From contig JBDKKE010000335.1 in assembly GCA_039796255.1 (NCBI GenBank), forward strand, positions 1 through 32,905: 32,905 nucleotides of DNA, given 5' to 3'. The position numbers and the translations under genes are program-made. Shown in pieces: positions 2 to 29,667 of the stretch (its first letter is position 1; the number at the start of each line of letters is the position of its first letter). The notes beneath the pieces are model-generated. The model saw only the letters and a list, made by a program, of their open reading frames with translations. It did no database searches and was not told the origin of the DNA. The stretch comes from Verrucomicrobiota bacterium (GTDB taxonomy: Bacteria > Verrucomicrobiota > Verrucomicrobiia > Limisphaerales > UBA9464).

Positions 2-3000
2 GATGGGGCATCATTCGTGGTCAGCCACTGCACCTTCCCCTCCAGCACCTCTCCCTTCGAGCTGGTTCACGGCACTCAGGGCATCAAGGCAGGTGGCCAG
101 GGCATCATCCGCCACTGCTTCTTCGGCACCACCAGCGGGTACAATGACATCGTGGACTTTACCGGAGGAAACCGCGCCACCCAGCCCATCATTCATTTCC
201 TCAACAACGTGTTCACCGGCGCCACCGATGACATTTTGGATCTCGACAACACCGATGCCTGGATCGAGCACAATGTCTTCCTGCACGTGCACAAGAACGG
301 ATCCCCGGATTCGGCCAGCGCAATCAGTGGCGGGAACGACAACGGACAGCCGTCGCAGATCACCGTCATTGGAAACCTGTTTTACGACTGCGACCAGGCG
401 GTCACCGGCAAGGAGCAGAACTTTTATGTCCTGCTCAACAACACCATCGTCCGCCAAACCCACCAGGGAGGCTTGGACACGGACGGTGCAGTGGTGAACC
501 TGGCCGACGAGGGCAAGGCCGAGGGCTCCGGAATGTATCTGGAGGGAAACATCATTCAGGACGCCGAAAAACTGGTGCGCAATCAGGTCAGCGCCGTGGT
601 GACCCTGAATGACAACCTCACCTCCCTGCCGTGGGACGGTCCAGGAACCGGCAATCGAAACCTGGACCCGCTGCTGAACCATCTGCCGTCCCTGGAGGAG
701 ACCCATTTTGGCACCTGGGAAGAGGCCCAGGCGCTGTGGAATTGGTTCGCCCTTCAATCGGCCTCGCCCGGCGTCGGCAGCGGTCCCGGGGGGCAGGACC
801 TGGGCGGTGTGATTCCCATCGGCGCCGTCGTCACCGGAGTTCCCTCCGGCACCACGCGCGAAGGTACGGCGACGCTGACCGTCGGTCCCCTTCGCGCGGG
901 CGGAACCATTCCCGCAGAGGGATGGCCCCTTGGCTCCGGTTACACCCATTATCGCTGGCGTCTCGATGGGGGTCCGTGGAGCGCCGAAACTCCGGTCAGC
1001 ACCTCCGTCCATCTCGACGCCGTCCCGCCCGGAACTCACACGATCGAGGTGTCCGGACGACGGGACTCCGGATTGTATCAGGATGACCCGCGCTTCGGCG
1101 ATGACGCCCGGATCACCGCGCCGCCCGCCTGGACCGTAGATCCCGCCTTCGCCCCCCCCGTCACGCCATCACTCCGTCTCAATGAAATCCTCGCCCGCAA
1201 TACGATCACCTTCACCAGCGGCGAGACGACTCCGGATTTGGTGGAACTGGTGAACACCGGCGGCGAGGCCTTGGACCTGGGCGGCGTGGGGCTGTCCGAC
1301 GACCCGGCGCTGCCCTATAAATTCCGCTTTCCCACCGGCATTCGGCTGGAGGCTGGGGCGTTTCTCGTCGTGCAGGCGGACAGCGCCATCGCCAACCCCG
1401 GAATCCATCTGGGATTCGCTCTGGGCCAGGACGGGGACTCCCTATTCCTCCATGACGCGCCGGCACGAGGGGGATCCCTGCTCGATTCACTCGGATTCGG
1501 TCACCAGATCAACGACCTCTCGCTGGGGAGGCGGGCGGACGGGACCTGGGGATTGTGCCGCCCGACCCTGGGCGCCCCCAACGAAGCCGTATCCACCGGC
1601 GATCCAGGCGCACTACGCATCAACGAATGGCTGGCGAATGCGCGCTACCTGTCCGCCGACGACTTCATCGAACTGTACAATCCCGATCCCCGTCCGGTGG
1701 CATTGGAGGGGCTTTATCTCTCCGACTCACCGGGCACCCCGGATCGCCACCGCCTGCCGCCGCTGAGTTTTCTCGCCGCCGGCGGATGCCTCGCCCTCAA
1801 GGCCGATGGGGACGACCGGGGACGTCCGGGACACCTCTCCTTCAAGTTGGCGGCCGAGACAGGAACCATTCAGCTGTCCACCGCCAACCTCACCCCGGTG
1901 GACACCATCAACTACGGCCCCCAATCCACCGACATCTCGCAGGGACGGACTCCGAGCGGGTCCGATCGTTTCGCGTTCTTCCGCCAGCCGACTCCTGGCG
2001 CCTTGAATCCCGGGTCCAACGGCGGCGGGTCCACCAACATCACCTGGACGAGTACTCGCCTGCTGGGATTTGACGCCAACTGGCGCTACCTCGCAGGACT
2101 CGCCGATCCCGGTGACTCCTGGCGGAATCCCGAATTCAACGACAGCGGATGGTCCTCAGGTTCCGGCCCGCTCGGCGTGGACCCCAGCACTCCCTTCCCC
2201 TATCCCCTGGCCGTCCGGACGCCGCTTCCGATCACCGCTCCCAACGGGACCCACCTCAAGTCCTACTACTTCCGCACCCACTTTCAGTCGGAAGCACCCG
2301 CCGCCGGGGTCACTCTGTATGTGACCAACTACCTGGATGACGGAGCGGTCTATTATCTCAATGGCTTTCGGATCGGCGCGCTGCGGGTCGCGGACAACCC
2401 TGCCCGCCACGATAGCGACGCCACTCTTCAACCCGACGAGGGCCAGATGGAGATCCTTTCCCTGCCTGCGACCCATCTGGTCTCCGGCGACAACGTCCTC
2501 GCCGTCGAAGTCCATCAATCCGGAAACTCCAGCACGGACGTGATGTTCGGACTCTCCCTGGGAGCAGTGCAGGCCACCACCAACCGACACCCGGACTCAA
2601 CCCGACCGATCGTCCTCAACGAGATCTTCGCCCGCAATCGGACACGACCCACCGCCGGTGGTCGGATCTGCGGTTGGGTCGAACTCTTCAACCCCAACAC
2701 CAACGCGGTGGACCTCGCCGGCCTGGGCCTGAGTGATGATTCCACCTCACCGCGCAAATGGACCTTTGCAGCCGAGTCCCCAATTGCTCCGGGCGGATTT
2801 CGCACCGTCCGGTTCGACAGCTCCAGTCCCGCATCCTCCACCAACACGGGATTCGACCTTCCGCTCCTGGGCGGGAGCGTCTTCCTCTCAGATCGACCCG
2901 CCACGGGCGGGGCCATCCTGGACGCGCTGTATTTTGGGCTGCAGGCGGCGGACTTCAGCATCGGGCGTTTCCCGGATGGCGGCGACGAATGGCTGCTGAC

Positions 3001-3856
3001 GCTTCCGGGCGAAAGTGCCGCAAACCTCCCGGCTGGCCTCGGCTCGCCCACGGTGCTGCATCTCAACGAGTGGATGGCGGATCCGGTGTCCGGCTCCGAC
3101 TGGTTTGAAATCTACAACGCCGACGCCGCCCCGGTATCCCTGCATGGCCTGGCGGTGACCGATGACCTCGGCGCACCGGTCAAGTCCCCCTTCTCTCCGC
3201 TCTCCTTCATCGGCACCGGCCCGTATGGATTCGTGCAGGTTCTGGCCGACAAGAAGCCGGCTTCCGGCGCCAACCACGCCGACTTCAAGCTCGCCAAGGA
3301 GGGTTCGGCACTCGGGCTGTTTGCCCTCTCCGGGCTCGCACTTGATGCCTTGTCCTTTGGTCCGCAGGCCCACGGCGTGTCCGAGGGCCGGCTGCCGGAC
3401 GGTGCGGCAACCGTGATTGTCTTTCCAACCAGTCCGACCCCGGAAGCCCCCAACCGCCTCGGTGGCCAGGCCGGTGACACCGACTCGGATGGAATGCCCG
3501 ACGATTGGGAGAACGCCCACGGTTTGAACCACCTGGTCGACGATTCAGCCCTCGATCCCGACGCGGATGGATTCTCCAACCTGAACGAGTACGGTGCGGG
3601 CACCGATCCCCAGCAGGCATTCAGCAACCTTTCCCTCCACGCGGAGTCCAATCCGGATGGGTCCGTGGAACTTTTCTTCCAGGCCATCCAAGCGCGCAGC
3701 TACTCGGTGCAGTTCCGCGACGACCTCGCCCTCGCCCACTGGCAAACGCTGTCAGCGATACCCAACCAACCCTCCAATGGCACCGCGATCGTGCCTGCGG
3801 GAACCCCGCCCGCGAGCGGCCGGTTCTATCGGGTCATCACCCCGGTGACGCCCTGA
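2..3856 (+). CDS. Large surface/secreted lamin-tail-domain (LTD) repeat protein, 5'-truncated
   Basis: Frame is open from base 2 (DGASFVVSHC...), so the start lies upstream of the window. Four LTD-like repeats (LRLNEILARN..DLVELVN, LRINEWLAN..DFIELYN, IVLNEIFARN..WVELFN, LHLNEWMAD..DWFEIYN), a beta-sandwich insert (WRY..YYFRTHF..DDGAVYYLNG..LAVEVHQ), DxDxDG motifs and C-terminal RFYRVITP. Confidence 0.85.
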   Translation, partial: DGASFVVSHCTFPSSTSPFELVHGTQGIKAGGQGIIRHCFFGTTSGYNDIVDFTGGNRATQPIIHFLNNVFTGATDDILDLDNTDAWIEHNVFLHVHKNGSPDSASAISGGNDNGQPSQITVIGNLFYDCDQAVTGKEQNFYVLLNNTIVRQTHQGGLDTDGAVVNLADEGKAEGSGMYLEGNIIQDAEKLVRNQVSAVVTLNDNLTSLPWDGPGTGNRNLDPLLNHLPSLEETHFGTWEEAQALWNWFALQSASPGVGSGPGGQDLGGVIPIGAVVTGVPSGTTREGTATLTVGPLRAGGTIPAEGWPLGSGYTHYRWRLDGGPWSAETPVSTSVHLDAVPPGTHTIEVSGRRDSGLYQDDPRFGDDARITAPPAWTVDPAFAPPVTPSLRLNEILARNTITFTSGETTPDLVELVNTGGEALDLGGVGLSDDPALPYKFRFPTGIRLEAGAFLVVQADSAIANPGIHLGFALGQDGDSLFLHDAPARGGSLLDSLGFGHQINDLSLGRRADGTWGLCRPTLGAPNEAVSTGDPGALRINEWLANARYLSADDFIELYNPDPRPVALEGLYLSDSPGTPDRHRLPPLSFLAAGGCLALKADGDDRGRPGHLSFKLAAETGTIQLSTANLTPVDTINYGPQSTDISQGRTPSGSDRFAFFRQPTPGALNPGSNGGGSTNITWTSTRLLGFDANWRYLAGLADPGDSWRNPEFNDSGWSSGSGPLGVDPSTPFPYPLAVRTPLPITAPNGTHLKSYYFRTHFQSEAPAAGVTLYVTNYLDDGAVYYLNGFRIGALRVADNPARHDSDATLQPDEGQMEILSLPATHLVSGDNVLAVEVHQSGNSSTDVMFGLSLGAVQATTNRHPDSTRPIVLNEIFARNRTRPTAGGRICGWVELFNPNTNAVDLAGLGLSDDSTSPRKWTFAAESPIAPGGFRTVRFDSSSPASSTNTGFDLPLLGGSVFLSDRPATGGAILDALYFGLQAADFSIGRFPDGGDEWLLTLPGESAANLPAGLGSPTVLHLNEWMADPVSGSDWFEIYNADAAPVSLHGLAVTDDLGAPVKSPFSPLSFIGTGPYGFVQVLADKKPASGANHADFKLAKEGSALGLFALSGLALDALSFGPQAHGVSEGRLPDGAATVIVFPTSPTPEAPNRLGGQAGDTDSDGMPDDWENAHGLNHLVDDSALDPDADGFSNLNEYGAGTDPQQAFSNLSLHAESNPDGSVELFFQAIQARSYSVQFRDDLALAHWQTLSAIPNQPSNGTAIVPAGTPPASGRFYRVITPVTP

Positions 3857-3993
3857 CGGATCCCAACACGATGCGGAGGCATTCTCCCATCCGGATTCCG
3901 TGAAGCCCCCGGCAGGGAATCCCGTAGCCGGTGAGTTTTGTGAGCAAGTATCGATTGAGTTGAAGACCCGGGCCTGACCAGGGTGTGGGCTTC

Positions 3994-4350
3994 ATGGCAC
4001 GTTCAGGGCTGGGTCGGGGATTGGGAAACCTGCTTTCGCAACACGCAGGCCCGGGGACTTCCATGCCCGGGCCGGGGGTAAGCCGCCTAATGCGCCTGAC
4101 CTCCGAGAAAAAATTAGCCCCTGTGGCGGAGGCTCCGACGCCCCTCAACGCCATTGCTTCAGCACCTCTCGCCGGCGCGGCCACCCTTGGGCTGTGGATC
4201 GCCGATTTCTTCCTTTCGGTCACCGCCCTTTGGTTGGGCGGATTCAGCCCCATGGCCGGTCATCCGGACGCCCTATGGCTGGGAGGAATTCTCGTTGGGA
4301 TTGCAGGATTTCTCGGCCTGGTCGCTGCAGGAGTCTTCTGCCGGGGATAA
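3994..4350 (+). CDS. Small predicted two-TM membrane protein with ParB-like N-terminal LGRGL peptide
   Basis: ATG 3994 (alternative GTG 3985) to TAA 4350; MARSGLGRGLGNLLS, Pro/Ala linker, then two hydrophobic segments (LGLWIADFFLSVTALWLGG; LWLGGILVGIAGFLGLVAAGVF). Confidence 0.7.
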   Translation: MARSGLGRGLGNLLSQHAGPGTSMPGPGVSRLMRLTSEKKLAPVAEAPTPLNAIASAPLAGAATLGLWIADFFLSVTALWLGGFSPMAGHPDALWLGGILVGIAGFLGLVAAGVFCRG

Positions 4351-4464: not shown

Positions 4465-5484
4465 CTACGACTTTCCCGAATGCTTCTTGGCGTGCTCGTG
4501 GTCAGCGCGGAGCACCAGCTTTTCCGAGCCGCCGCCGTGTTCTTCCAGATCGGTGAAGAGCCCCTCGTCCGTGAGATCAAGCGAATGCGAGTGTTCCCAA
4601 TCATGCCCGGCCACTTTTTCGAGACGTTCCGCCACCTCGTCATCGTGAACCTCGATGGCCAGTTCCCGGCGGTCGTCGAAGCTTCCCGGGGCCAGGTTGA
4701 TGGAACCCACGATGGCGCGCTTGCCGTCCGCCAGGAGCATTTTGCCGTGGAGTTTCAGATGCTTGAGCTTGTGAATCTTGATCCCCACATCGTCCATGAT
4801 GCGCAACCCGCCCACCCCCTCGACGATCTTCTCCCGCTTCAGCGAATGCGGTGGCCGCGCCATGACGTGAATCTTGACGCCACGGGTGGCGGCGCGGACG
4901 AGGCGTTCGATGATGACAGCGTCCTGGTAACGCTCGTTCTGAACGAACAGCGTGTGCTTGGCCTCGTCGATGAACCGTGCGATGCGGTCGCGCCCGTTGA
5001 TCGGACACCAGATCAGGTGCGGACTTTCGCCGGGCTTGAAGTCCTTGCGGTGCCAATCGGCGTCGAAGCAGTCCGCGATCTCGGCCACCTCGTGTTTGTG
5101 GGTGGTGGTAATGGCGTAGTCGCGGGTTTCGGTCAGATTCTTGGTGGCCCAGTTGAGCGACTTGACGAAGGCCACCTCGTGATCCAGCACCATCGATTTC
5201 TCGTGGGTGATGCCGAAGTCGGGATTGCTGTCCTTGATGTCGATGCCCGCGTGGGCAAGCGCCTTGCGGACGTGATCATTGTCATCCTCGCCGCTGCGCC
5301 GGGCCGCATTGAGCATGACCCGCACCTTCACGCCGCGCGCGTGGACGTCGATCACCGCCTTGAGCAGTTGCGGATCCGAAAAGACGAACATCTTGACCCA
5401 AAGTGACTGCTTCGCCGCTTGGATCGCATCGAGGATGGGCTTGGAGGATTCGTCGGGGAGAACAATGAGTGCGCGCTTTGACAT
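4465..5484 (-). CDS. Phospholipase D family protein (two HKD motifs)
   Basis: HEKSMVLD and HGKMLLAD...GSIN fit HxKxxxxD; no evident signal peptide or TM segment. Confidence 0.88.
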   Translation of the reverse strand: MSKRALIVLPDESSKPILDAIQAAKQSLWVKMFVFSDPQLLKAVIDVHARGVKVRVMLNAARRSGEDDNDHVRKALAHAGIDIKDSNPDFGITHEKSMVLDHEVAFVKSLNWATKNLTETRDYAITTTHKHEVAEIADCFDADWHRKDFKPGESPHLIWCPINGRDRIARFIDEAKHTLFVQNERYQDAVIIERLVRAATRGVKIHVMARPPHSLKREKIVEGVGGLRIMDDVGIKIHKLKHLKLHGKMLLADGKRAIVGSINLAPGSFDDRRELAIEVHDDEVAERLEKVAGHDWEHSHSLDLTDEGLFTDLEEHGGGSEKLVLRADHEHAKKHSGKS

Positions 5485-10828: not shown

Positions 10829-13800
10829 TCAGGGAATGATGACGCGGTAAAGACGCGACCTCGGGGTCGCGCCCGCCGGCTGGAGCGTCTCAATGTCCCG
10901 CGCGGTGATTTCCGGAAGCACCGTTTGGACCGTCGTCCAGACTCCTCCCGGGATCGGATCGGCTTCCTGCAAGGCATAGGCCCGTCCGGCCTCGGCGCGG
11001 AAACGCAGGGTCACCCCATCGACGGCTCCGTCCGCCTGAATCCGAAGACGACTTCCCGCCCGTTGCGGATCGGTCCCCGCCAGGTACTCGTCGCGATTGG
11101 CAAATCCGTCCCCGTCAGCATCGGCCAGACTGTCGGCGCGGAGCGGGTCGAGTCCGTGAACCCGCTCCCAGGCGTCCGGGAGTCCGTCGGCGTCGAGGTC
11201 CGCCCCACCACCCACCGCGGTGGAGACAACGGTGATCGCATTGGACGCCGCCAACTGACCGGCGAAGTCGTATCCCAACACCTCCAGGCGGTTGGTCCCC
11301 AGCCACAGGGGAACACGGATCTGCCACTCGGTGATCGAACTCCAGGTCCATTCCCCGGCGGTCTCGGGCGAGCGAAGGACCAGGGTGCGCAGATCGATTC
11401 CCGCCGTGCCGGTCAGGGTGATGGCGGAGGCTCCGGTCAACACATCCTGGCCCGCGCCCGTGCGGATGCTCAGCGGCACCGCGGGCGGCAACTGCTGACG
11501 CGCGTAGGCGGATCGCTGGCGAATGTAGGTGAGTACACCCCCATAATTCTGACCGGCCAGCGTCCCGAAATGGGACGTCCAGCGCGCCAGGTAGGTGGGA
11601 TTGTAGGAGCGGTTCAACAAGTCCTGAAGGTGTCCATAAAACAGGCGCCGGTTGCCCGGCAGTTCCAGAATGCGGCCAATGTTGGCTCCCACCGGGAGCG
11701 ATTCCGTCGGCCCGCGCGCCCAGCAGAAATCCATGTCCCAGGGAAAGGTCAGCGCCTTCCCGTCTCCGGGCCGAAAGTAGATGAACTGGTTGTGCGGATA
11801 TCCCACCGCATAGGTGTCCGCATCCCCACTGAGCGACTTGAGGGCCATCGCCCGCGCCCATTGATCCACGTCCATCAGGTCGCGGCTCTCACGGTCCAGT
11901 GCCGCGCCCCCCAGACTCATCGCCTTCGCCAGACGGATCACGGGGGCGTAGTCGTCCCCGGACCGAAGGTTCTCGATGGGGAAGTACCACCGGTACGCCT
12001 CCGGATCATCGCCCCGATCCTGGATGTCGGTTCCGATCACGTCGTCCGGTTGCGGAAGCTTGGGATTCTGCGGATTGCCGCCGACCGAGGTCGTCGGATA
12101 GTAAATCAACTCCAGCTTGAACAGACTGCCATCACTCCCGTTGGGATAGGAGTCCTCCAGAAAGCCATCGCCGTACTTGGTGGTGACCAACTGGGCGACT
12201 CCGGTGCGCCGTCCGTCGAGGTTGCGCGGATAGATCCCGCGCACCAGATCGGTATACATTTCGGGAAGTCCGCCGGCCTGGGTCATGATGTGCCGCAGCA
12301 CGATTTCATCCTGGCGTCCGCCCCGCCCCGAATAGCCGCCGCTCCGATCCAGGGTCACCGAATCGTGAACCCCGCGAAAGGGCCGGTCGGCGTCGAACTC
12401 CAGGGTGAATCCCACGCGGCTGGAATCCGGACGCCCCCGCTCGCTGGAGTGAAGCCGAACTCCGATGTCATACAGGGGCTCGGTCTCGTCCACATACAGC
12501 GTTCCACCCAAAGCCTCATTGCTCATCAGGTTGGTCGCCGCGAATTGAAACGCAGAGTCGGCAACGGTCATCACGATGCGCATCTGGTGCAGCCGGGTAT
12601 TCGCGGCCTGACCATCCCGCACCTGATAGAGCACCCGCGAGTCGCGTCCGGCGGGGGGAAACACGGATCGGGCCCCGGCCGCATCGGCAGCCTCCACATA
12701 AAACTGAACCACCGTCGCCGCTGCCTGGGGCGGGATCTCCGCCTGCCAGGAAGCCTCACCGGAGCGGTTCATGACCGCGCTTTGCCATCCCCTCGCCCCG
12801 GGATTCCACCACAGCAGGCACTCTGCAACCCCCTCAGGATCCGCGGGGGTCACGACCACGGTCACCGGGTCGGTTGGCGCCGGGATGACCGGAAAATGGC
12901 GCAGTCCGGAAAAGGTGGGTCCGGCATTGGTCAGCCATCGGGAGTTGCGGGCACCGGGAGTTCCGCTGAGTTCGGGCAACTCCAGAACGGTCGTGCGCGC
13001 CAGCCGGCTGAAGTAGAGTCGCGAGTTGAGCCGAGGGCTCCCTGAAATCCAGCGGGCGCGAAACGCGATGCGGTAGGTGCGGCCATCCTCGACCCGGGCA
13101 CCGCCCACCAGCGTGGTCTCCAGGTGATTGTGCATGTGTTCCGTGGGACCGGTGGCCACCAGGCGGAGCACGGAATTCCCCGGCTGATCCGGATCGGGAA
13201 CCACCTCGCTGCGACGGTGATTTCCCAACCGCCGCCAGGACGCGGTGCCGGAGGAGAAATCACCATTGACCAGAAGTTCCCGGGCGGACGCGGTATCCGG
13301 GGACTCGATGACGCTCAGGTCGTCGATCAACACCTCACCGGCGGCGAGCAGTCCCAGGATGAATTCGTTCCACTGGGTCGGACCGCCGTCCGATTGGGCG
13401 ACTCCCTCGTAGCGGTAGGACTTCCATACCGAACGGCCGGACTCATCGCTCGCCGCCCACGCACCGGCCTGGGCATTGTCCGAACGGGGATCGCGCAACT
13501 CGAGACTCGAGCCGCCGCCGTCGGGGGCGGAAGGCCAGGGTTTGCCGGTGAAGTAGCGCACCCGGTCCACCGGATTCCCCAGCGCATCCAGCAACGTCAC
13601 GGCATCCCCGGAACGGGACAGCCGTCCCGCGAAGTTGCCCAGGACCCGGATTCCCGGACGCTGCTCCCGCAACGAGGCCGCATCGCGGGCCACCACCAGG
13701 TAGCCACCCGCCTCCAACTGCGTGTTGGCCGGAAAGGTGAAATCAATGCCCTCCTCCAGCCTCCAGCCCGAAAGCTCCACCGCCCGGGTTCCCGGATTAT

Positions 13801-15325
13801 GGAGTTCCACCCACGACTCCGGGGATTCCCTCAGCGGAAGCGCCGGACGGATCTCCTCGATCAGGGAAGCCTCCAGACCAAAGACCACATCGGAACTGCC
13901 CAGCGACGACTGGTGAACCTCCACCGCCAGCACATTGGTACCCACCCGCAGGCTTTCCGAGGGCACCACCTTCCGATCCGAGAACACGGCATTGCCGACA
14001 CTGGGGGCGGCGAAGGTGGTGTACTCCAGCGGACCTTCGGGAAGATTCATCCGCAGAACCTCAGTCCCGTTCAGAGACACCACCGCCCCGTCGTCCACCA
14101 GCAGACGCAGCGCCAACTGGGTCGCGGCCGACTTCTCCTCCACGACCACGGTGGTGCGAAAGTAGTAGGTAATCCTGCCGAGCGTGAGGGGCGTGCTCTT
14201 GGGGGCGGGAAGGTCCGCGTCCTCCGCGAAAAACGCTCCGGCCCCCTGGCTCCAGCCGCTGTCGGAGAACCCGGGTTGCCTCCAATCGCCTGCGGGTTCG
14301 GATCCGGACTGGTCGTAACGCCACACCGAGTCCACAGCCAACAGCGGACGTTCCGTCACCTCGGCCGGCTGCGCGGGCAGGTCGGGAACGTGGTATTGGA
14401 TCTCGTTGATGACCACCTCCCCCTGCGGCGGGAACTCATTCACCGTCCCCGGCGTGAGACGCGATGGCGTCCACCAACGATTGTCCGATCCGCGCCGGGC
14501 CAGGGCAGCGCGCCCCATCGTGACTCCGTCCAGATATTCCCCCTCCATCCGATTCACCAGGAGAAGCCGGTCGCCGGACTTGGGAATCCATCCCAGCGTA
14601 TTCTGGTCCCAGGCCAGATATCCGCGTTCGGGCAAAATCACCCCGGCGGGTGGGACCCATTCATTGCCACCGCCGCCCACCCGGCGCACCGCCAGGCCGT
14701 CCAGCGAAAGCGGTTGATCCGTCGGATTGAAAATCTCCAGCCAGAACGGCCGATCGCCGGTGCCCGCAATCTCGCTCAGGCGCACCGGCGGTGGCGCCGG
14801 GGGGCCGTCGGGAACGTTGGCGGCGGCGGGCGTGCCGCCCATGCGACGGCTGTGGGTCCACGCGGCGGGATCGGAGGTCGGCAGGAACTCATCATGCCGG
14901 GAGAGGGTGGCGCCCGACCCGGCAGGAATCACGGGCCAGGGAAAGTCGGTGCCGTATCGGATGCTCTCCATGAGACGGCCGTTGTGATTGCGGAGTTCGA
15001 GCCGCTCCCCGGAATTGTCCAATCGACCGGAGAATGGTCCCAGAACGTTGGTGGCACCGGTGGCGCTGACCAGCGCCGTCGCCTCCGCAGCCACCACCAG
15101 GTAGCCGCCCCCGGCCAGGATGGTTCCCGCGGGAAAGGTGAATCCCACGCCCTCGGACAACCGCCATCCGGACAGCTCCACATCCACCGCCATCGGATTG
15201 TGCAGTTCCAGCCACTCCACGGAGTCGCCACCGGCACCCGACGGTTGGTAATGAATCTCGGTAAAGACCACGGCCGTATCCACCGCCAGAGCCCGGGAGA
15301 GCCAGGCTAGGAGGATCCAACCCAT
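10829..15325 (-). CDS. Lamin-tail-domain / CotH kinase-like surface protein
   Basis: LTD repeats (VVFTEIHY..EWLELHN; VVINEIQY..WVELHN), CotH-like region (DTY..HNQFIY..FPWDMDFCW), C-terminal DxDxDG motifs and RLYRVIIP. Start uncertain: ATG 15325 gives a short signal-like MGWILLAWLSRALA; an in-frame GTG near 15364 is also possible. Confidence 0.8.
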   Translation of the reverse strand: MGWILLAWLSRALAVDTAVVFTEIHYQPSGAGGDSVEWLELHNPMAVDVELSGWRLSEGVGFTFPAGTILAGGGYLVVAAEATALVSATGATNVLGPFSGRLDNSGERLELRNHNGRLMESIRYGTDFPWPVIPAGSGATLSRHDEFLPTSDPAAWTHSRRMGGTPAAANVPDGPPAPPPVRLSEIAGTGDRPFWLEIFNPTDQPLSLDGLAVRRVGGGGNEWVPPAGVILPERGYLAWDQNTLGWIPKSGDRLLLVNRMEGEYLDGVTMGRAALARRGSDNRWWTPSRLTPGTVNEFPPQGEVVINEIQYHVPDLPAQPAEVTERPLLAVDSVWRYDQSGSEPAGDWRQPGFSDSGWSQGAGAFFAEDADLPAPKSTPLTLGRITYYFRTTVVVEEKSAATQLALRLLVDDGAVVSLNGTEVLRMNLPEGPLEYTTFAAPSVGNAVFSDRKVVPSESLRVGTNVLAVEVHQSSLGSSDVVFGLEASLIEEIRPALPLRESPESWVELHNPGTRAVELSGWRLEEGIDFTFPANTQLEAGGYLVVARDAASLREQRPGIRVLGNFAGRLSRSGDAVTLLDALGNPVDRVRYFTGKPWPSAPDGGGSSLELRDPRSDNAQAGAWAASDESGRSVWKSYRYEGVAQSDGGPTQWNEFILGLLAAGEVLIDDLSVIESPDTASARELLVNGDFSSGTASWRRLGNHRRSEVVPDPDQPGNSVLRLVATGPTEHMHNHLETTLVGGARVEDGRTYRIAFRARWISGSPRLNSRLYFSRLARTTVLELPELSGTPGARNSRWLTNAGPTFSGLRHFPVIPAPTDPVTVVVTPADPEGVAECLLWWNPGARGWQSAVMNRSGEASWQAEIPPQAAATVVQFYVEAADAAGARSVFPPAGRDSRVLYQVRDGQAANTRLHQMRIVMTVADSAFQFAATNLMSNEALGGTLYVDETEPLYDIGVRLHSSERGRPDSSRVGFTLEFDADRPFRGVHDSVTLDRSGGYSGRGGRQDEIVLRHIMTQAGGLPEMYTDLVRGIYPRNLDGRRTGVAQLVTTKYGDGFLEDSYPNGSDGSLFKLELIYYPTTSVGGNPQNPKLPQPDDVIGTDIQDRGDDPEAYRWYFPIENLRSGDDYAPVIRLAKAMSLGGAALDRESRDLMDVDQWARAMALKSLSGDADTYAVGYPHNQFIYFRPGDGKALTFPWDMDFCWARGPTESLPVGANIGRILELPGNRRLFYGHLQDLLNRSYNPTYLARWTSHFGTLAGQNYGGVLTYIRQRSAYARQQLPPAVPLSIRTGAGQDVLTGASAITLTGTAGIDLRTLVLRSPETAGEWTWSSITEWQIRVPLWLGTNRLEVLGYDFAGQLAASNAITVVSTAVGGGADLDADGLPDAWERVHGLDPLRADSLADADGDGFANRDEYLAGTDPQRAGSRLRIQADGAVDGVTLRFRAEAGRAYALQEADPIPGGVWTTVQTVLPEITARDIETLQPAGATPRSRLYRVIIP

Positions 15326-15470
15326 CCCTCCTCGACGAAGAAGTGATTTCAAATGCGGGAACACCACACAGAACCATGGCGAAGCCCCTCCCCCGGGGAA
15401 ACAGCGAAATGGACAGTCTGGCGTTGAGGGTCCGAAAGCCCGCAGACCCGAAGCTGTGCCGCCGTGCCCG

Positions 15471-15494
15471 CACCTGCCCACCTGCCCACCTGCC
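15471..15494. repeat. Short tandem repeat (CACCTGCC)x3 in the divergent CotH/purB intergenic region
   Basis: cacctgcc-cacctgcc-cacctgcc, with degenerate flanking copies. Confidence 0.7.
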
Positions 15495-15597
15495 CGCACC
15501 GCCCCCCTCTTCCCTCACGGGCTCGATCCATCCGATCTGGGCGTCTGCGGACCAATTTCCTTTTCCCCGCCCCATCGGCCCGATTTGATGGGCGCGC

Positions 15598-28939: not shown

Positions 28940-29299
28940 TCAGCCGTTCTGACCGCGAGCCTCGATACGGATTCGTTCGAGGATTATTTCCAGATTCAGA
29001 AGTCGTTGAGTCACGGTGCGATAAACCAAAGCCAGGTTGACTCCCGAGTAGTCATGGATGAGTCGATCCCTCATTCCCGACATTTCCCGCCAGGGAACAG
29101 CCGGATAACGCACGCGCAATTCAGCGGGAATCTTCTTGGCCGCCTCGCCAAGGACCTCGAACGCGCGAATCACGGCAAACTGGGTACGATCATCGGCCTC
29201 AAATTGGCCGAGAGTCATTTCTCCAACGAACCCGCGGGCCTTTCGACTCATAGTGATCCTATCGTCAAGGTGATCGGCGAAGTCCCGCCGGCCGTTCAT
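28940..29299 (-). CDS. hepT: HepT-like HEPN ribonuclease toxin (DUF86)
   Basis: [24 protein letters not shown] (RX4HXY); ATGA overlap with the upstream MNT gene. Confidence 0.88.
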
Positions 29300-29589
29300 A
29301 GGGGAACTGCCTCCCCAAAAATCATCTCGCCCATCTGCGGCTTCAGGGATTCTTTCAACACCAGATCAACCCGGACCCCCAACGAATCGGAGAGGAAATT
29401 CTCCAACTCGAGAAACAGAAAGAGATCGGGCGGCCTCGAAAAGGTCACCAGTACATCCAGGTCACTGGCTTGCGTCGCCTCGCCACGGACAAATGAACCG
29501 AACAACTCGATAGTGGCCACGCCAAAGGCGTTCACCAATTGGGGCCGAAGCTCCACCAATTTCGCTCGTAGTTGCTCCAATGTGTTCAT
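29296..29589 (-). CDS. mntA: Minimal nucleotidyltransferase antitoxin (MntA-like)
   Basis: [15 protein letters not shown] fits GSX10DXD; VDLV; 97 aa from ATG 29589. Confidence 0.88.
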
Positions 29590-29667
29590 GCCGTGGGCGA
29601 TTCCAGGGGCTCCCATCCTTCAACATTCAAGAGGGCCACGCGTTCCAAGATCTGCGCTTCGCTGCAT

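Follow-up and report, generated by a model that had tools for sequence, protein, structure and literature searches.

Chromosomal ParB (Spo0J) proteins carry the pattern LG(R/K)GLxxL(L/I/M) within their first 15-20 residues, followed by a disordered stretch. In the sections of a Myxococcus xanthus study that we draw on (PMC12462528), this N-terminal motif, at residues 11-19 of M. xanthus ParB, is necessary for binding of the ATPase ParA, and serine substitution of L11, L15, L18 or I19 strongly impairs the binding. The same sections report that R13, a position held by lysine in about half of chromosomal ParBs, is required for ATPase stimulation and less so for ParA binding, that a peptide of 20 amino acids (aa) is sufficient, and that juxtaposed pairs of peptides are far more active than single ones. 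Here we describe a small protein in which a closely similar peptide precedes two transmembrane helices. Its gene lies in a 32,905-nucleotide (nt) stretch of DNA, which we call the window and which is all of contig JBDKKE010000335.1 (C335) in a Verrucomicrobiota assembly of the order Limisphaerales (GCA_039796255.1, or G000; 691 contigs, 82.7% complete). The open reading frame (ORF) at window positions 3994-4350 on the forward strand, with its stop codon at 4348-4350, encodes a product of 118 aa (P0001) that starts MARSGLGRGLGNLLSQHAGPGTSMPGPGVSRLMRL, reads MARSGLGRGLGNLLSQHAGPGTSMPGPGVSRLMRLTSEKK at greater length, and has two hydrophobic stretches at its C-terminal end. Translation, homologs and three family alignments identify the ORF as a real, conserved gene, and its product is a small, unannotated inner-membrane protein. 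From the likeness of its first residues to ParB, we lean slightly towards reading it as a partner of chromosomal ParA that is anchored in the membrane.

Several described systems are comparable in part. PomX, McdB, MinE and TlpT, which are partners of ParA/MinD ATPases, also have a short, basic, disordered N-terminal peptide for the ATPase and a separate module. According to the portion of a comparative study cited here (10.1101/2022.06.09.495121), the N-terminal peptide of such partners addresses the ATPase as a 'luggage tag', and the remainder binds cargo. The family described here has the same layout, with an N-region of low predicted local distance difference test score (pLDDT) that has a basic residue at position 8, and a separate membrane hairpin module. 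In contrast to these partners, whose peptides are system-specific and usually encoded beside the ATPase, the family carries ParB's peptide without linkage, and its 'cargo' part is a membrane anchor only. ParB itself holds the peptide on a DNA clamp, whereas in our family it sits on a membrane hairpin. Noc, a paralog of ParB, retains the ParB CTPase and DNA-binding domains, and its N-terminus binds the membrane. As with Noc, going by the part of PMC8429893 used here, a ParB-derived element would connect the nucleoid and the membrane. Unlike Noc, the family has none of the ParB domains, is anchored by two predicted transmembrane helices, and keeps the ParA-binding pattern at its N-terminus, so that its link to DNA would be indirect, through ParA. 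PopZ, TipN, HubP, DivIVA and PadC, which act as polar sinks or tethers of ParA, are envelope- or pole-associated, capture ParA and shape its gradient, as our protein might; they are large scaffold proteins that bind ParA via other surfaces, and we know of none that uses a copy of ParB's N-terminal peptide. What is already known, from the cited portion of 10.1101/2022.06.09.495121, is that an N-terminal tag can address a ParA/MinD ATPase; what appears to be new is a transmembrane protein with chromosomal ParB's own tag, conserved over an order. No such protein was described in the literature searched, which consisted of listings and the beginnings of abstracts, or in the family libraries.

The single ParB of the window's assembly (310 aa, contig C533) starts MSKPGLGRGLGALLSGG, and the ParBs of five relatives start MSKPALGRGLGALL. 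An earlier note on this DNA, made from the letters alone (the original prediction), had pointed to a ParB-type ParA-activating peptide, and the peptide is indeed close to the ParB N-terminus of its own genome, with 11 of 15 residues identical. When the first 15 residues of the small protein and the same-genome ParB are compared in five genomes, 11-12 are identical in four and 7 in the fifth; many members have an MSKP prefix in common with ParB, and in genome G019 the two agree at 12 of 15 residues. At third codon positions the small gene and parB agree in only about half of cases, which gives no hint of recent gene conversion. Comparison by hhalign of a 35-member family profile with six ParBs from related genomes gave a probability of 95.2% (E 2.5e-8) over 22 columns, which correspond to residues 1-22 (3994-4059 on the forward strand), and no alignment was found past column 22. 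When the family profile was compared with all PDB sequences, its best match was the N-terminus of Caulobacter ParB (6t1f, E 0.03), and in whole genomes ParB N-termini were the next-best matches after the family itself. The pentapeptide LGRGL occupies residues 6-10 of the ORF protein. The short pattern LG[RK]GL is common, with 63 occurrences when the whole 5.5-Mb assembly is translated in six frames, and the longer M-x4-GLGRGLGxLLS is found there only in ParB (contig C533) and in the 118-aa ORF. As judged from these comparisons, the resemblance exceeds chance, and the N-terminal peptide matches the ParB N-terminus and nothing else.

The likeness ends with the peptide. The ParB/Srx CTPase domain (PF02195) is absent from P0001 and from all 35 members in Pfam and NCBIfam searches. 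The helix-turn-helix (HTH) parS-binding domain and the C-terminal dimerisation domain are also absent, as the linker is followed only by two transmembrane helices within the 118 aa. The absence of the CTPase and HTH domains had been anticipated from the letters, and it holds: for the ORF protein Pfam returned only a sub-threshold AtpZ match and NCBIfam none. We dismissed the AtpZ match (E 0.036, 14.1 bits against a cut-off of 25), as well as Trp_oprn_chp matches in 3 of the 35 members (best E 3.8e-4), as resemblance between hydrophobic helices, and neither Pfam nor NCBIfam has a family for the ORF protein or for any of the 35 members.

The core of the peptide, LGRGLGNLL (residues 6-14, 4009-4035 on the forward strand), is a putative site of ParA binding and activation on the grounds of conservation, codon use and the hhalign result. 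The 35-member alignment is diverse, with a mean column identity of 20% and members down to 19% identity, and its invariant columns are M1, L6, G7, G9, L10 and D71, with L13 conserved in more than 90%. Position 8 is basic in all 35 members (Arg in 30, Lys in 5), whereas Leu, Met or Val can occupy position 14. The determinants mapped in M. xanthus ParB fall on family positions L6, L10, L13, L14 and R/K8, which are the conserved ones. Across the family the N-terminus can be written as M-x(3-4)-LG(R/K)GL-xx-L(L/M), with MSKP(A/V)LGRGLGSLL in many genera. Among the 35 members, L6 is encoded by 6 codons and G7, G9 and L10 by 4 each, and the ratio of nonsynonymous to synonymous change (pN/pS) over codons 2-14 is 0.355. 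Because each invariant residue uses 4-6 codons and pN/pS is this low, the constraint is on the peptide and not on an overlapping DNA or RNA signal. No part of the protein is better conserved than the LG(R/K)GL motif, on which selection acts at the protein level.

The start codon matters here, since a protein-collection entry of 86 aa (P0002), which covers 73% of the query at 100% identity, begins at Met33 (codon at 4090-4092, forward strand) and would cut off the motif. The relatives P0008, P0010 and P0011 were also entered from the same internal Met. Gene calls of this kind remove the ParB-like motif and may explain why the family went unnoticed. If they were right, the motif would be untranslated, either because the gene begins at Met33 or because there is no gene and the conservation at the 5' end reflects a DNA or RNA element. 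The collection entries for the window product and its relatives agree with this alternative, as does the fact that the RNA contigs of two metatranscriptome runs leave the ORF uncovered; they cover only its flanks (3600-3734 and 4501-4700) and are evidence of expression neither way. Nevertheless, residues 1-14 are the best-conserved part of the protein across the order while synonymous change there is saturated, and Met33 is conserved in the closest relatives only. In addition, relatives L009 and L010 have a stop codon just one codon ahead of Met1, so that the motif must sit at the extreme N-terminus. Together with the conservation of residues 1-32, these upstream stops favour Met1 as the start, and we consider an untranslated motif very improbable.

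After the ParB-like stretch, the window protein has a second conserved motif, GVSRLMRL, at residues 28-35 (4075-4098, forward strand), which is predicted to be cytoplasmic and is supported by the family alignments and by order-level sequences. The original prediction had listed LGRGL, a degenerate echo of it (GPGVSRLM), a Pro/Ala linker and two hydrophobic helices; all are found, and the echo, at residues 26-33, proves to be part of this second motif. The motif follows the first after about 10-40 residues and can be summarised as G(V/L)xxLL(R/K)G; its form is GVQLLLRG for most of the window's taxonomic family, and the order-wide pattern is [PR]G[VL]xx[LF]L[RK]G. Its glycine, G28, is nearly invariant in family alignment A2. 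We rejected the idea that it is a homolog of the first domain strand of ParB, as the hhalign alignment ends at column 22. Next comes a Pro/Ala-rich linker (residues 36-59, 4099-4170 on the forward strand) that is variable and predicted to be disordered (pLDDT 56-64). In the family at large this linker is rich in Pro, Ala and Ser and of very variable length, and the whole N-terminal region ranges from 53 to 194 aa among members.

The C-terminal half is a membrane hairpin. A hydropathy scan of the window protein found two hydrophobic segments, and AlphaFold2 predicted helices at 60-83 and 91-117 (pLDDT 80-87). Taken together, the AlphaFold2 models made in the family gave a confident hairpin (pLDDT 80-93) and a short helix at residues 10-15 or 10-17, with tails that are otherwise disordered. 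Transmembrane helix 1 (residues 60-83, 4171-4242, forward strand) has an Asp early in the helix, D71 (codon 4204-4206), which is invariant in alignments A2 and A3, and also contains Trp80. The loop that follows (residues 84-90, 4243-4263, forward strand) has no Lys or Arg and is predicted from charge analysis to be periplasmic. Transmembrane helix 2 (residues 91-117, 4264-4344, forward strand), supported by the AlphaFold2 model and by hydropathy, would bring the C-terminus (..CRG) back into the cytoplasm. All 35 members have two hydrophobic segments, an N-region with 4-12 Lys/Arg, no signal-peptide-like start, a basic C-terminus and an inter-helix loop of 5-16 aa with 0-2 Lys/Arg. By the positive-inside rule, segments of membrane proteins that are rich in Lys and Arg are cytoplasmic, and given the distribution of these residues both termini are placed in the cytoplasm. 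A periplasmic N-terminus would have spoken against a ParA partner; in all 35 members the charge distribution predicts a cytoplasmic one, and a tether of roughly 40-180 residues could therefore let the peptide make contact with nucleoid-bound ParA.

The window protein is a short form of the family. Members in six genera of its taxonomic family continue after helix 2 with a basic, putatively cytoplasmic tail, P-x-[IL]-R-V-x-F-x-[DE]-E-x-P-x-x-R, which is absent from the window protein and from genera g1, g5 and g9. In the long forms (L047 at 1501-1944, L033, L040-L046 and L058-L071) the tail reads ..LNPL.EEKPR[IL]RV[RQH]F[MVL]DE.PRRR and is predicted to be disordered; among 26 sequences R136 is invariant, and P133, F139 and R147 are conserved in more than 90%.

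A word-indexed search found eight close relatives at 62-77% identity, and those covering the N-terminus all keep M[AS]RSGLGRGL[GD]NLL. An exhaustive profile search of 1.84 billion representative proteins gave 14 matches at E<=1e-3, from which we set aside P0015, a repetitive protein, and P0016 (886 aa, 11 stretches), as their matches are confined to the hydrophobic part. A profile of 15 sequences matched 73 of the 81 genomes of the window's taxonomic family, 46 of them with full-length members (one in two pieces). Nine further members with very long linkers were identified from the DNA, bringing members to at least 55 of the 81 genomes. In the order, the 35-sequence profile matched 199 of 251 genomes at E<=1e-3. 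Counting as full-length a match that begins no later than profile position 3 and ends no earlier than 106, we find full-length members in at least 68 of the 251 genomes and at least 31 of the 86 families (hand count of the matches listed); 13 candidates were scored per genome, and a further 106 matches lie beyond those listed, which makes 68 a lower bound. Among the matches listed, nearly all of the remainder are short N-terminal matches in ORFs of ~300-400 aa, and those that we checked (in G016, G020, G025 and G034) are ParB genes. Among 300 genomes of the phylum from outside the order, a single one gave a match at E<=1e-6, and we judged this match spurious, as it has no N-terminus and contains two in-frame stops. 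The ESM Atlas puts a long-form member among Verrucomicrobiota 'hypothetical protein' clusters without a Pfam family. Homologs thus exist, and LG(R/K)GL and the transmembrane pair are their conserved parts, in favour of the original prediction. The family was also expected to be lineage-specific, and it is restricted to one lineage; that lineage is the whole order Limisphaerales and not a single genome.

If the peptide acts on an ATPase, the candidates can be read from the genomes. The window's assembly encodes a canonical ParA/Soj of 263 aa from its likely start, which is close to solved Soj/ParA structures (8ray, 1wcv, 6iub and 8jmj; E 1e-51 to 2e-74). MinD was not found above the TIGR01968 cut-off, nor MinE (PF03776) at all, in the five order genomes searched (G000, G016, G104, G227 and G237; three are single-contig). 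The only other ParA-like gene of the assembly is an orphan of 326 aa, which lies directly downstream of an unannotated 397-aa gene without an NCBIfam match. Among the ParA-like loci of G104, a complete Limisphaerales chromosome of 7.89 Mb, the orphan has no ortholog; the best are 28-30% identical and are Soj and plasmid-type ParA. We rejected the orphan as a partner on this account, and the chromosomal ParA/Soj is the only conserved candidate partner among the ATPases present. The peptide could in principle activate some other member of the ParA/MinD superfamily, given that the assembly encodes, besides the orphan, an Mrp/ApbC homolog and two Wzc-type tyrosine kinases, whose kinase domains belong to the possible targets, and that many such ATPases have partners with N-terminal peptides (10.1101/2022.06.09.495121, cited portion). 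This is improbable in our view: apart from the orphan's lack of an ortholog in G104 and its place behind the 397-aa gene, non-chromosomal ParAs use different partner motifs, avoiding cross-talk (PMC12462528, in the sections used), and the peptide is nearly identical to the chromosomal ParB motif.

In a working model with chromosomal ParA as the partner, the two-helix hairpin would anchor the protein in the inner membrane with both ends in the cytoplasm. The flexible N-terminus would display LG(R/K)GLxxLL, a short helix-forming peptide that chromosomal ParB also uses, and this helix would dock in a hydrophobic pocket where the subunits of the ATP-bound ParA (Soj) dimer meet, as that of ParB does. 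Nucleoid-bound ParA-ATP dimers would be captured at the membrane, ATP hydrolysis triggered and ParA released. Self-association of the hairpin, with the invariant buried Asp as a candidate contact, might pair two peptides as in the closed ParB clamp. The outcome could be a transient tether between nucleoid and membrane, or a membrane-proximal sink that shapes or reads the ParA gradient; the protein might also compete with ParB, or be positioned itself by the ParA gradient. The original prediction of a membrane-anchored ParB mimic that tethers or discharges a ParA-type ATPase is thus strengthened by the conservation, the ParB match and the cytoplasmic N-terminus, while for binding and discharge, as for peptide pairing by the hairpin and any cellular role, we can only infer what the protein would do.

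A number of observations weigh against the protein being a ParA partner. No ParA-like neighbour is present in the window or in five relatives with 8-kb flanks, and there is no ParA among 49 neighbouring genes scanned at 28 loci; nor was parB ever found beside the small gene. In G104 the genes are unlinked, with the small gene at 4.81 Mb, parA at 7.06, parB at 7.85 and dnaA at 1.48 Mb. A single unpaired peptide is a weak activator, going by the sections used of PMC12462528, and self-pairing of the hairpin protein would have to be supposed. Full-length members were detected in only 68 of 251 order genomes, and at the sensitivity used the family went undetected in most of them; although 68 is a lower bound, ParA may be able to function without the protein. 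As an exception to the invariance among the 35 members, Ser replaces G9 in three sequences, and the metatranscriptome contigs stop at the flanks of the ORF. Finally, a membrane protein could have an amphipathic N-terminal helix for some other purpose.

This last point can be put as an explanation of its own, in which the peptide derives from the ParB N-terminus, or has converged on it, and no longer acts on ParA. It would then be an amphipathic helix that lies on the membrane or binds another cytoplasmic partner, and what the protein does would depend on the hairpin and its buried Asp, on the GVxLLLRG motif and on the C-terminal tail. The ParA model leaves precisely these elements, including the RxRVxFxDE tail, unexplained, since it assigns no role to the two extra motifs, although they are conserved, or to the invariant Asp within the membrane. 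The lack of a genomic link to the par genes fits as well, and Noc offers a precedent, in that the N-terminus of a ParB paralog has turned into a membrane-binding helix. However, a generic amphipathic helix needs neither the invariant Gly7 and Gly9 nor an MSKP prefix shared with ParB, and the conserved positions coincide one for one with the experimentally mapped ParA-contacting residues. We therefore regard a peptide that has lost its connection with ParA as rather unlikely, and continue to give a slight preference to the membrane-anchored ParA partner.

Some features of the par and dnaA loci are recorded here in their own right. G104 carries a second, linked parA-parB pair at 6.84 Mb, and the parB of the window's assembly is, like the small gene, without a parA neighbour. 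G104 also has twelve matches to the Bac_DnaA model (model positions 33-143; 43.7-43.8 bits) in ORFs of 301-849 aa that are scattered over the chromosome; these look like the helper ATPase of a multi-copy insertion sequence.

In the window, the ORF begins 138 nt downstream of a very large lamin-tail-domain (LTD) gene on the same strand, and a PLD-like gene (4465-5484, reverse strand) converges on it. Elsewhere, the window encodes sulfatases, another LTD protein and a HepT/nucleotidyltransferase pair, and contains housekeeping genes as well as PSCyt2/PSD1/DUF1501 genes. The two very large proteins, encoded at 2-3856 (forward strand, >1284 aa) and 10829-15499 (reverse strand, 1556 aa), are of secreted type, and both have multiple lamin-tail domains and bacterial TSP3 repeats. 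At 28940-29616 on the reverse strand, overlapping genes for a HepT-like ribonuclease (119 aa) and a nucleotidyltransferase (106 aa) form a HepT/MNT-type toxin-antitoxin pair that sits between a DUF1501 gene and a PSCyt2/PSD1 gene.

Upstream of the ORF we observed a conserved box, TTGTGAGCAAGTATCGATTGAG (3938-3959, forward strand), when the window was aligned with the upstream regions of five relatives from genus g5. The box, TTGTGAG(C/T)AAG(T/A)AT..(A/G)TTGAG, is located ~35-57 nt ahead of the start codon, both in the window and in L003, L004, L005, L035 and L039. It has no match to the sigma-70 consensus, and a promoter and terminator scan found nothing exceeding shuffles; the box may be a promoter or an operator.

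The order has no conserved gene neighbourhood around the small gene. Members of genera g1, g5 and g9 have it directly upstream of mnmG (gidA) on the same strand (L011-L013, L015, L054-L057, L061 and others). We rejected this as a family-wide link, as it is absent from the window, from the mnmG locus of the window's assembly, and from other genera and families. In that assembly mnmG is on contig C607 with no small ORF upstream, while the small gene is present there in four other g1 species whose loci were read. Both the window protein and the upstream box are closer to genus g5 than to other species of the assembly's own genus, g1. Contig C335 may be mis-binned, or the gene may have been relocated; the finding is unchanged either way. 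Elsewhere in the order, 6 of 20 order-level loci (L077, L084, L090, L091, L095 and L098, from four families) have an SNF2-type helicase gene that ends immediately before the small gene on the same strand, and an M42 aminopeptidase gene is directly upstream in three order-level loci of another family.

Returning to the protein as a membrane-anchored partner of ParA, we put forward, more tentatively, that the chromosomal ParA of Limisphaerales, in which neither MinD nor MinE was found in the five genomes searched, might serve two clients through a single docking peptide. One would be the ParB-parS complex and the other the hairpin protein, which would couple the ParA gradient to the membrane by capturing and discharging nucleoid-bound ParA at the envelope. 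If this is true, the order could have a built-in competitor or sink that sets ParA dynamics, or a nucleoid-sensing mark on the membrane for the choice of the division site or the organisation of the envelope. It would also be a natural case of deliberate cross-talk on chromosomal ParA through peptide mimicry. The specificity of ParA-type ATPases is thought to rest on partner-specific N-terminal peptides, and a conserved membrane protein with the ParB tag would be an exception. A peptide of ~20 aa with known critical residues would be a simple handle on ParA gradients and on the link between nucleoid and envelope. For a poorly studied and mostly uncultured order of Verrucomicrobiota, a family so far labelled 'hypothetical protein' gains a hypothesis, in which a peptide shared with ParB may bring chromosomal ParA to the membrane.

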